DNA of 53,766 nucleotides from a virus (IMGVR_UViG_3300045125_000094:1-53766); one strand, 5' to 3'; positions 25 through 795 are shown, numbered from the stretch's first letter. A program made the numbers and translations. Notes: generated from the letters alone by a model not told the origin.

Positions 25-795
25 GTTTCAAAGGCATCTCCTTTGAACATCTATTGCTACACGGGCGCATGGCATTGTCACCGCTGCGACGAGTCAGGGT
101 TTCAAAAGCATCTCCTTTGAACATCTATTGCTACATCGATCATCGCCGGTGGTACTCGTCGCGGTCGTGCCGTTTCAAAAGTATCTCCTTTGAACATCTA
201 TTGCTACATTACAATTGAAAGCGAGTTTCGCGTACTGTTCCATCTGGTTTCAAAGGCATCTCCTTTGAACATCTATTGCTACTTGCCATCGCATCGCGTC
301 AAAAGTGAAAGATGAGTTTCTAAGGCATCTCCTTTGAACATCTATTGCTACGATTCAAGTCTCGGCTTTTGTTGAGCGGGGTCTGTAGTTTCAAAGGCAT
401 CTCCTTTGAACATCTATTGCTACGCTGATCGCCGGAACCGGGGCGCTGCTGCTCGACAATTGTTTCAAAGGCATTTCCTTTGAACATCTATTGCTACACG
501 AACAGCGCCGATGTGATGCCATCGGATTGGACCTCCGTTTCAAAAGCATTTCCTTTGAACATCTATTGCTACCTGGTGGAGCGCTTCGGACCAGATATCC
601 GCTACATGCCCGTTTCAAAAGCATTTCCTTTGAACATCTATTGCTACTTTACCCCGGACAAGCCGACGCTCGAAGCCAACCGCCAGGTTTCAAAGGCATT
701 TCCTTTGAACATCTATTGCTACTGTGCGGATCCGCCTGGAACCGCAGACCGACCGCCCGGTTTCAAAGGCATTTCCTTTGAACATCTATTGCTAC
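25..795 (-). CRISPR. CRISPR array, 11 repeats of 36 bp (+ strand consensus GTTTCAAAGGCATYTCCTTTGAACATCTATTGCTAC) with 10 complete 33-39 bp spacers; continues across the window junction
   Basis: Repeats at 25, 99, 172, 247, 316, 388, 462, 537, 612, 687 and 760. On the minus strand the repeat ends in GAAAC and has a TTCAAAGG-N5-CCTTTGAA hairpin. Orientation inferred from the upstream minus-strand effector and the degenerate repeat at the far end (53717). Confidence 0.98.

Follow-up and report, generated by a model that had tools for sequence, protein, structure and literature searches.

Viruses can themselves carry CRISPR systems directed at other mobile elements, as in the Cas-phi arrays of huge phages and in ICP1 against PLE. 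The mini-arrays of the Sulfolobales are also virus-borne and directed against other viruses, according to one report (PMC6858448). A further family, the type V-M effector Cas12m, differs in what it does to DNA. Cas12m orthologues with DED, HDD, or NDD triads bind DNA and do not cut it (PMC11013384), and the tested proteins leave PAM-flanked DNA bound and uncut; they stop both phages and plasmids in that transcription or replication is blocked (PMC11013384, PMC10442227). With GoCas12m, E. coli is protected when essential genes of a phage are targeted on one strand or the other, and the authors of that work propose the silencing of prophages or mobile elements as a task suited to systems of this kind (PMC11013384). 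A Cas12m borne by a phage has only just been described: a 2026 preprint presents MvCas12m of the myxophage MV-1, a protein of 610 aa with 8 spacers that its authors call the first bacteriophage Cas12m, and they report no significant protospacer match for any of these spacers (bioRxiv 10.64898/2026.09.14.751636).

The window analysed here is a viral stretch of 53,766 nucleotides (IMGVR_UViG_3300045125_000094:1-53766), and it carries, at one end, a CRISPR array directly beside the gene for a Cas12m-like protein. We put at roughly 60% the probability that this phage-borne V-M locus holds guides taken from genes of other phages and proviruses, and that it silences those competitors by binding. The features of the locus are as follows.

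25..795, minus strand: CRISPR array, 11 repeats of 36 nt and 10 complete spacers of 33-39 nt.
817..2345, minus strand: cas12m-like effector gene, about 508 codons (Pfam, homologue alignment, profile search).
53717..53752, minus strand: degenerate terminal twelfth repeat, 7 mismatches against the repeat, with 14 nt between it and the end of the contig.

Like the type V-M systems already characterised (MmCas12m2, GoCas12m, and MsCas12m; PDB 8hhl, 8hio, 8pm4, 23vw, and 23vu), the locus combines a compact TnpB-derived effector, with RuvC and TNB domains, with an adjacent array of 36-nt structured repeats; Cas1 and Cas2 were not found, and the DED triad is one of the variants described (PMC11013384). 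Unlike the characterised Cas12m proteins, which have about 600 aa, this one has about 508 aa and is carried by a phage, and its repeat was found in no other record searched (a 22-nt piece of the repeat had zero matches in viral and genome contigs). It resembles MvCas12m, as described in the preprint, in being a phage-encoded effector beside an array, with a conserved D-E-D and without adaptation genes; in the present locus, one spacer could be assigned to a provirus primase family. With the virus-borne arrays in general it shares its place in a viral genome, spacers probably derived from other viruses, the lack of self-targeting, and a presumed role in competition or superinfection exclusion. 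In contrast to the Sulfolobales, Cas-phi, and ICP1 arrays, its effector belongs to a family whose tested members bind and do not cut, and its targets appear to be diverged homologues, not near-identical kin. What is added is thus a new and smaller phage Cas12m with one guide traceable to a gene, the DNA primase of proviruses found mostly in Rhodobacterales-type genomes.

The repeats of the array start at positions 25, 99, 172, 247, 316, 388, 462, 537, 612, 687, and 760. The initial annotation counted 11 spacers; ten of them are complete within the array, and the eleventh is split over the two contig ends. The contig starts with 24 nt of spacer (1-24) and ends with the 14 nt that follow the degenerate repeat, a sum of 38 nt, which would form the eleventh spacer if the molecule is circular. 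This end-to-start join is an inference, for the record is linear according to IMG/VR, with a completeness of 81%. No terminal direct repeat was found in it. Both contig ends lie inside the array, and the typical spacer length that their 14 and 24 nt yield points to a genome that is circular or permuted and was opened within the array.

The minus-strand sequence of the repeat is GUAGCAAUAGAUG-UUCAAAGG-AGAUG-CCUUUGAA-AC, in other words an 8-bp stem-loop followed by two bases and then by the spacer. The stem is kept in 10 of the 11 repeats, and the degenerate repeat at 53717-53752 has a weaker fold (-4.4 kcal/mol). A G-to-A change at plus-strand position 9 occurs in four of the 11 repeats (99-134, 172-207, 537-572, and 612-647); from sequence and fold, it gives a G.U pair in a minus-strand RNA only, and an A.C in a plus-strand RNA. 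In all seven distant viral relatives from IMG/VR the array lies downstream of the effector gene, and the repeats end in a stem-loop plus (G)AC or GAG. Here, too, the array adjoins the gene, 21 nt downstream of its end on the minus strand. Taken together, the 3' stem-loop, the tolerance of the position-9 change, and the array placement in the seven relatives indicate that the guides are most likely minus-strand RNAs. With minus-strand guides, spacer 723-759 would be leader-proximal and presumably the newest, and the degenerate repeat would mark the old end. It should be mentioned that the five effector-proximal repeats have T at position 14, in the loop, where the older ones have C, so that the array contains two generations of repeats. 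The arrays of the distant effector relatives (L083-L089, 21-28% identical) vary in layout: every one of these loci has a CRISPR array directly 3' of the gene, arrays flank the gene on both sides in L083 and L089, compact units of about 46-56 nt occur alongside units of about 72-76 nt in L083 and L088, and L084 and L087 are near-identical loci.

The effector has 673 relatives at E<=1e-3 among 1.84 billion representative sequences, and its homologues are 508-604 aa long. The assembly spreads the gene over three frames: one from 2345 to about 1610, one from about 1621 to 1472, and one from 1467 to 820. Homologues align with each of them, stop codons stand at both junctions, and two single-base insertions are implied. 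Because the copy in the window is broken in frame, we made a profile from 40 homologues that are 61-76% identical to the window's gene. Against the sequences of the PDB, this profile matched all solved Cas12m chains over nearly their full length: 23vw (Cas12m, E 2.8e-64), 23vu (UnCas12m4a, E 2.3e-39), 8hio and 8hhl (Cas12m2, E 7e-25), and 8pm4 (GoCas12m, E 5.3e-21). TnpB-like, LaTranC, Cas12p, TnpB, and Cas12f chains matched the same 40-member profile at 1e-15 or weaker, and in the C-terminal part only. Among the PADLOC models, Cas12u1, the former name of V-M, fits best (E 2e-25 to 5e-31), and Pfam matched only the Cas12f1-like_TNB zinc finger (3e-6). The RuvC positions, which are the D of AAMDLGW, the E of LAWEDD, and the first or second D of DQDLNAA, fall on the nearly invariant columns D264, E426, and D507/D509, and the CxxC...CxxGH zinc finger is present. 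By these comparisons the effector is a Cas12m of type V-M and, by analogy with the tested members of the family, it would bind DNA without cutting it.

With a frame broken twice, the system could be dead. A decaying relic would have a cas12m gene that yields no protein and an array that persists without function; besides the three homologue-aligned frames with their stop codons, the degenerate terminal repeat would fit such a history, as would the lack, throughout the record, of any match to Cas1 (PF01867) or Cas2 (PF09827) at E<=0.1. Adaptation genes could, however, sit in the part that is missing, since completeness is estimated at 81%. Two genes that a phage cannot dispense with are split in the same way: the large terminase lies in at least three pieces, and the pieces of the major head protein match profile positions 1-173 and 286-383 of 385. 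This is what an indel-prone assembly produces, and we read the frame breaks as assembly indels and not as decay. Furthermore, the window's cas12m is 70-76% identical to an intact 508-aa homologue along its length, the two single-base shifts aside, all of its catalytic and zinc positions are kept, and the array retains its repeat stems as described above. A relic is for these reasons improbable in our judgement. An assembly prone to indels also means that exact-match searches with this record may miss true relatives.

The carrier is otherwise an orphan phage, and its annotated genes include the following.

11696..13996, plus strand: own primase-helicase (P0001), with a weak Zn_ribbon_DnaG match, D5_N, DUF5906, and Pox_D5.
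25072..26472: large terminase, frame-split.
30780..31946: major head protein, frame-split.
40148..42718: pectate-lyase-fold tail protein, 856 aa.
46863..47501: FGE-sulfatase-like protein.
50824..52392: DNA polymerase III beta-clamp-like protein, 522 aa.
53076..53675: thymidylate kinase.

The phage also encodes an integrase and a recombination directionality factor, and may therefore be temperate. As the initial annotation stated, its own primase differs from the spacer-encoded motif at the D5_N site, reading LELLARANGDICY at residue 314. None of the spacers matches this gene, and none fits the rest of the 53.8-kb record at 10 mismatches or fewer. Placement of the host by the portal protein gave at most 34.5% identity to cultured phages and at most 33% within 401 genomes of the family of genome G008; with the portal so distant in that sample, a single spacer is what points to a shared host.

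Protospacers were sought by BLAST for all spacers and, for several of them, by a codon reading of the spacer, that is, a pattern in which every third base, counted in the proposed frame, is replaced by N. The spacers with a part in the argument are the following.

61..98, plus strand, frame 0: encodes TGAWHCHRCDES(G); resembles the second zf-CHC2 zinc knuckle, and other zinc ribbons too.
424..461, plus strand, frame +1: encodes LIAGTGALLLDN; low information.
573..611, plus strand, frame 0: encodes LVERFGPDIRYMP; resembles RL[IVL]xxHGxDLRY just before the D5_N domain.
723..759, plus strand, frame 1: encodes VRIRLEPQTDRP; spacer next to the effector, presumed newest.

Six others (135-171, 208-246, 283-315, 352-387, 498-536, and the split end spacer) were covered by BLAST searches only. 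Neither an exact nor a near-exact protospacer was found for any spacer, the best being one with 5 mismatches in 37, and no match reaches the agreement that a functional target should show. A blastn search with the array (1-800) in collections of 50,697 phage records and of 72,556 plasmids returned chance-level pieces (best E=0.07, partly repeat); no spacer matched in 80 loci around primase relatives, and the 401 genomes of the family of G008 together with 101 genus genomes gave nothing that beats the 89% match described below. The wobble pattern of spacer 648-686 occurred zero times in viral contigs. A Pfam scan of the 44 stop-free spacer-frame peptides with their repeat flanks, insensitive for stretches of 13 residues, gave no primase family; its three matches were weak and to unrelated families, and we set them aside.

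The initial annotation had translated three spacers (61-98, 573-611, and 424-461), exactly in all three cases, and had proposed that the array may preferentially hit replication genes of rival phages or satellites. For these three, none of the collections searched gave a protospacer; it was spacer 723-759, which it had not named, that led to the primase gene of proviruses. The peptide VRIRLEPQTDRP aligns with residues 684-695 of a 976-aa DUF7146-Toprim DNA primase at 10 of 12 aa, and pairwise BLASTP places it at the same residues with E=1e-5. At the DNA level the spacer agrees with the primase site at 32 of 37 nt in L093 and L104 and at 30 of 37 in most others, which is 81-86% over 37 nt and 86-89% over the BLAST-aligned part, and per-genome BLAST E values range from 1e-7 to 1e-3. 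Every one of the 5-7 mismatches lies at a third codon position. The wobble pattern recovered 10 IMG/VR and nine bacterial contigs, in all of which it hits a single site of one primase gene. The bacterial contigs come from five isolates (Pseudoponticoccus, two species of Rhodovulum, Tropicimonas, and a Rhodobacteraceae bacterium) and four metagenome-assembled genomes labelled Actibacterium, Paracoccaceae, Alphaproteobacteria, and Pseudomonadota. Five of the IMG/VR records were checked and every one is a provirus, so that the viral and bacterial sets may overlap. In both loci with listed ORFs (L091 and L098) the matched site lies within RRLVRIRLDPHTDRPWQR of the 976-aa protein, and in the remaining 17 records the aligned windows of 57-59 nt are nearly identical in sequence. 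The L091 protein has DUF7146 and Toprim_3 domains and matches PHROG families annotated 'DNA primase', and its C-terminal domain is one annotated as P-loop-ATPase-like in phiCbK-like phages.

Mismatches confined to third codon positions are what homologous coding sequence leaves behind, not chance, and they also indicate that the true source is an unsampled relative of these primase genes. On the strength of this codon-level agreement, we take it as demonstrated that spacer 723-759 derives from a relative of the primase gene of the Rhodobacterales-type proviruses. This match provides a host lead for the phage, and it shows that reading spacers by codon, with N at the wobble positions, can recover diverged sources that exact and BLAST-type searches miss. 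It also offers a concrete case of what a non-cutting phage CRISPR system may aim at, namely an essential early gene of competitors. Counted from base 759, the presumed PAM-proximal end, the sampled proviruses match the spacer at only 12 bases. The solved Cas12m complexes read 17-18 bp (PMC11013384, PMC10442227), so that these particular proviruses may escape targeting altogether. In the homologous primase sites a conserved TGG follows the protospacer in the plus-strand reading, from which we would guess at a PAM of 5'-CCA on the non-target strand.

The other spacers have no significant match in the five checked proviruses. By BLASTP, the peptides of 61-98, 424-461, and 648-686 gave nothing below E 7 against the L091 primase, which argues that these spacers do not come from the same gene at a similar divergence. 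As a separate observation, the Walker-B-like strand of the provirus primase (L091:6010-8937 and its homologues) ends in IVLIDN, of the form hhhhDN and not DE, about 60 residues before the 723-759 site; it is of the same type as the LLLDN of spacer 424-461, yet the peptides do not align.

Two further spacers, 573-611 and 61-98, resemble primase genes at the level of motifs. In the sequences compared, P4/D5_N primase relatives read LTDLGNAERL[IVL]xxHGxDLRY[VC]xAWKSW and zf-CHC2 primase-helicases read kGLWxCFGCkxgG; the 573-611 peptide aligns to the former type (RLiarHGxdLRY, P4-type D5_N) and the 61-98 peptide to the latter (DnaG-type), the codon that follows 61-98 being GGN and hence Gly whatever the next base. 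With hhalign, LVERFGPDIRYMP was placed exactly on the RL[IV]xxHGxDLRY motif (P=0.014; the ten other spacer peptides 0.40-0.97), and TGAWHCHRCDESG of spacer 61-98 on kGLWxCFGCkxgG (P=0.0059; seven other peptides 0.14-0.83). About 44 stop-free spacer frames exist, and neither value survives correction for that many tests. In contrast to the known primases of these two types, no gene with the exact or wobble-variant sequence of the spacers turned up in the collections searched: the wobble pattern of 573-611 had zero matches in viral contigs (IMG/VR), 185,579 species genomes, and JGI metagenome contigs, that of 61-98 zero in metagenome, viral, and genome contigs, and an 8-codon pattern for RFGPDIRY occurred in none of the 401 genomes of the family of G008. 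Partial matches of 61-98 in G361, G334, and G091 were rejected as out of frame, with an indel, or of 24 nt only. The primase resemblance of the two peptides is suggestive, and plausibly the spacers stem from D5_N-type and zf-CHC2-type primase genes. The initial annotation had likened them to these two domains, and the motif placements are as it predicted; no protospacer was found for either, and 61-98 resembles other zinc ribbons as well. Directly upstream of D5_N-type primases (L001, L003, L008, and L009, IMG/VR) there is a small ORF with a zinc ribbon that ends in ...AGAWFCRECSW, another possible type of source for the GAWHCHRC spacer.

The third named spacer, 424-461, had been read as a helicase Walker B on account of LLLDN. 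This reading was not supported. The weak DNA matches found for it are to ABC ATPases, in frame with their ALITDPEALLLDEP in the Walker-B region (E 3-9 in the plasmid collection), and to EIGRAGALLRDR of a lambda-family portal gene (22 of 26 nt, E 0.03); all are at chance level, none is to a helicase, and numerous further weak partial matches occur in GC-rich genomes. One could ask from this whether some guides act on genes of the host, for example that of an ABC-transporter ATPase, and so reprogram it: the in-frame matches fall on alphaproteobacterial replicons, and multiple partial matches lie in Rhodobacterales-type chromosomes. Apart from the values in the plasmid collection, the per-genome E values are 3e-4 to 5e-3, and identity over the 26-35 nt aligned does not exceed 90%. 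The full-length wobble pattern of the spacer is absent from 185,579 species genomes (and had zero matches in viral contigs), and the DE of ABC ATPases is DN in the peptide. We hold such a use of the guides to be highly improbable.

The plus-strand reading frames, with the primase assignment of spacer 723-759 at their head, support the interpretation that the spacers readable on that strand are probably pieces of protein-coding genes of other mobile elements, replication genes among them. A preference for such genes is a different matter: a primase origin is demonstrated for 1 of the 11 spacers and plausible for no more than 3, so that the earlier proposal is partly supported for the kind of source and not shown for the bias. 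The spacers may instead be a random sample of rival phages, with the primase look of the three named peptides coincidental, or generic to zinc ribbons and hydrophobic stretches of whatever kind. Only one spacer of 11 is tied to a primase by DNA; the 2.9-kb primase gene makes up about 6% of a provirus of 45-56 kb, and would be hit by one spacer in 11 by chance about half the time, so that there is nothing striking in one match, and even three would amount to a mild enrichment only. GxWxCxxC is also found in a small zinc-ribbon ORF that is no primase, LIAGTGALLLDN fits ABC ATPases and the portal equally poorly, the Pfam scan gave no primase family for any of the 44 peptides, and the hhalign values are about 0.01 before correction. 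On the other side, LVERFGPDIRYMP and TGAWHCHRCDES land exactly on the most conserved motif of their families, each as the best of the peptides compared (11 and 8), and, should all three primase assignments be correct, 3 of 11 against an expectation of 6% corresponds to P of about 0.03 in a binomial test. We give this random sampling a substantial minority share of our belief. A stronger version, in which the non-cutting Cas12m serves the phage as a programmable repressor preferentially aimed at the primases of rival phages and prophages in the same host, seems to us rather unlikely. Were it true, the replication of a rival would be shut down without the DNA breaks that would kill the shared host or trigger its SOS response, and the bias would come from selection in favour of those guides by which a rival is halted at the first step it cannot do without.

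Returning to the reading that we favour, in which the locus silences competitors by binding, with or without such a preference, its operation may be pictured as follows. The array would be transcribed together with cas12m on the minus strand, and each guide would consist of the repeat handle and, after it, the plus-strand spacer in reverse complement. The spacers would have been acquired from other temperate phages or from proviruses, out of their protein-coding genes, the host probably being shared with this phage; the guide nearest the effector would come from a close, unsampled relative of the DUF7146-Toprim primase gene of Rhodobacterales-type proviruses, and two older guides plausibly from D5_N-type and zf-CHC2-type primase genes. 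By analogy with the tested Cas12m proteins, the phage most likely uses these guides to occupy essential early genes of its competitors. The outcome would be superinfection exclusion or the silencing of a resident prophage, with the DNA left unbroken.

Finally, a minor observation touches the neighbourhood of the effector gene. A single public sequencing run was found with sequence from this region, X1, an aquatic metagenome that holds 6% of the words searched, and it covers 2292-2591, that is, the start of cas12m and the sequence upstream. Its contigs are short and 95-100% identical to the window, with loose ends at 2353 and 2366, and they show that a related element occurs there in a different neighbourhood.
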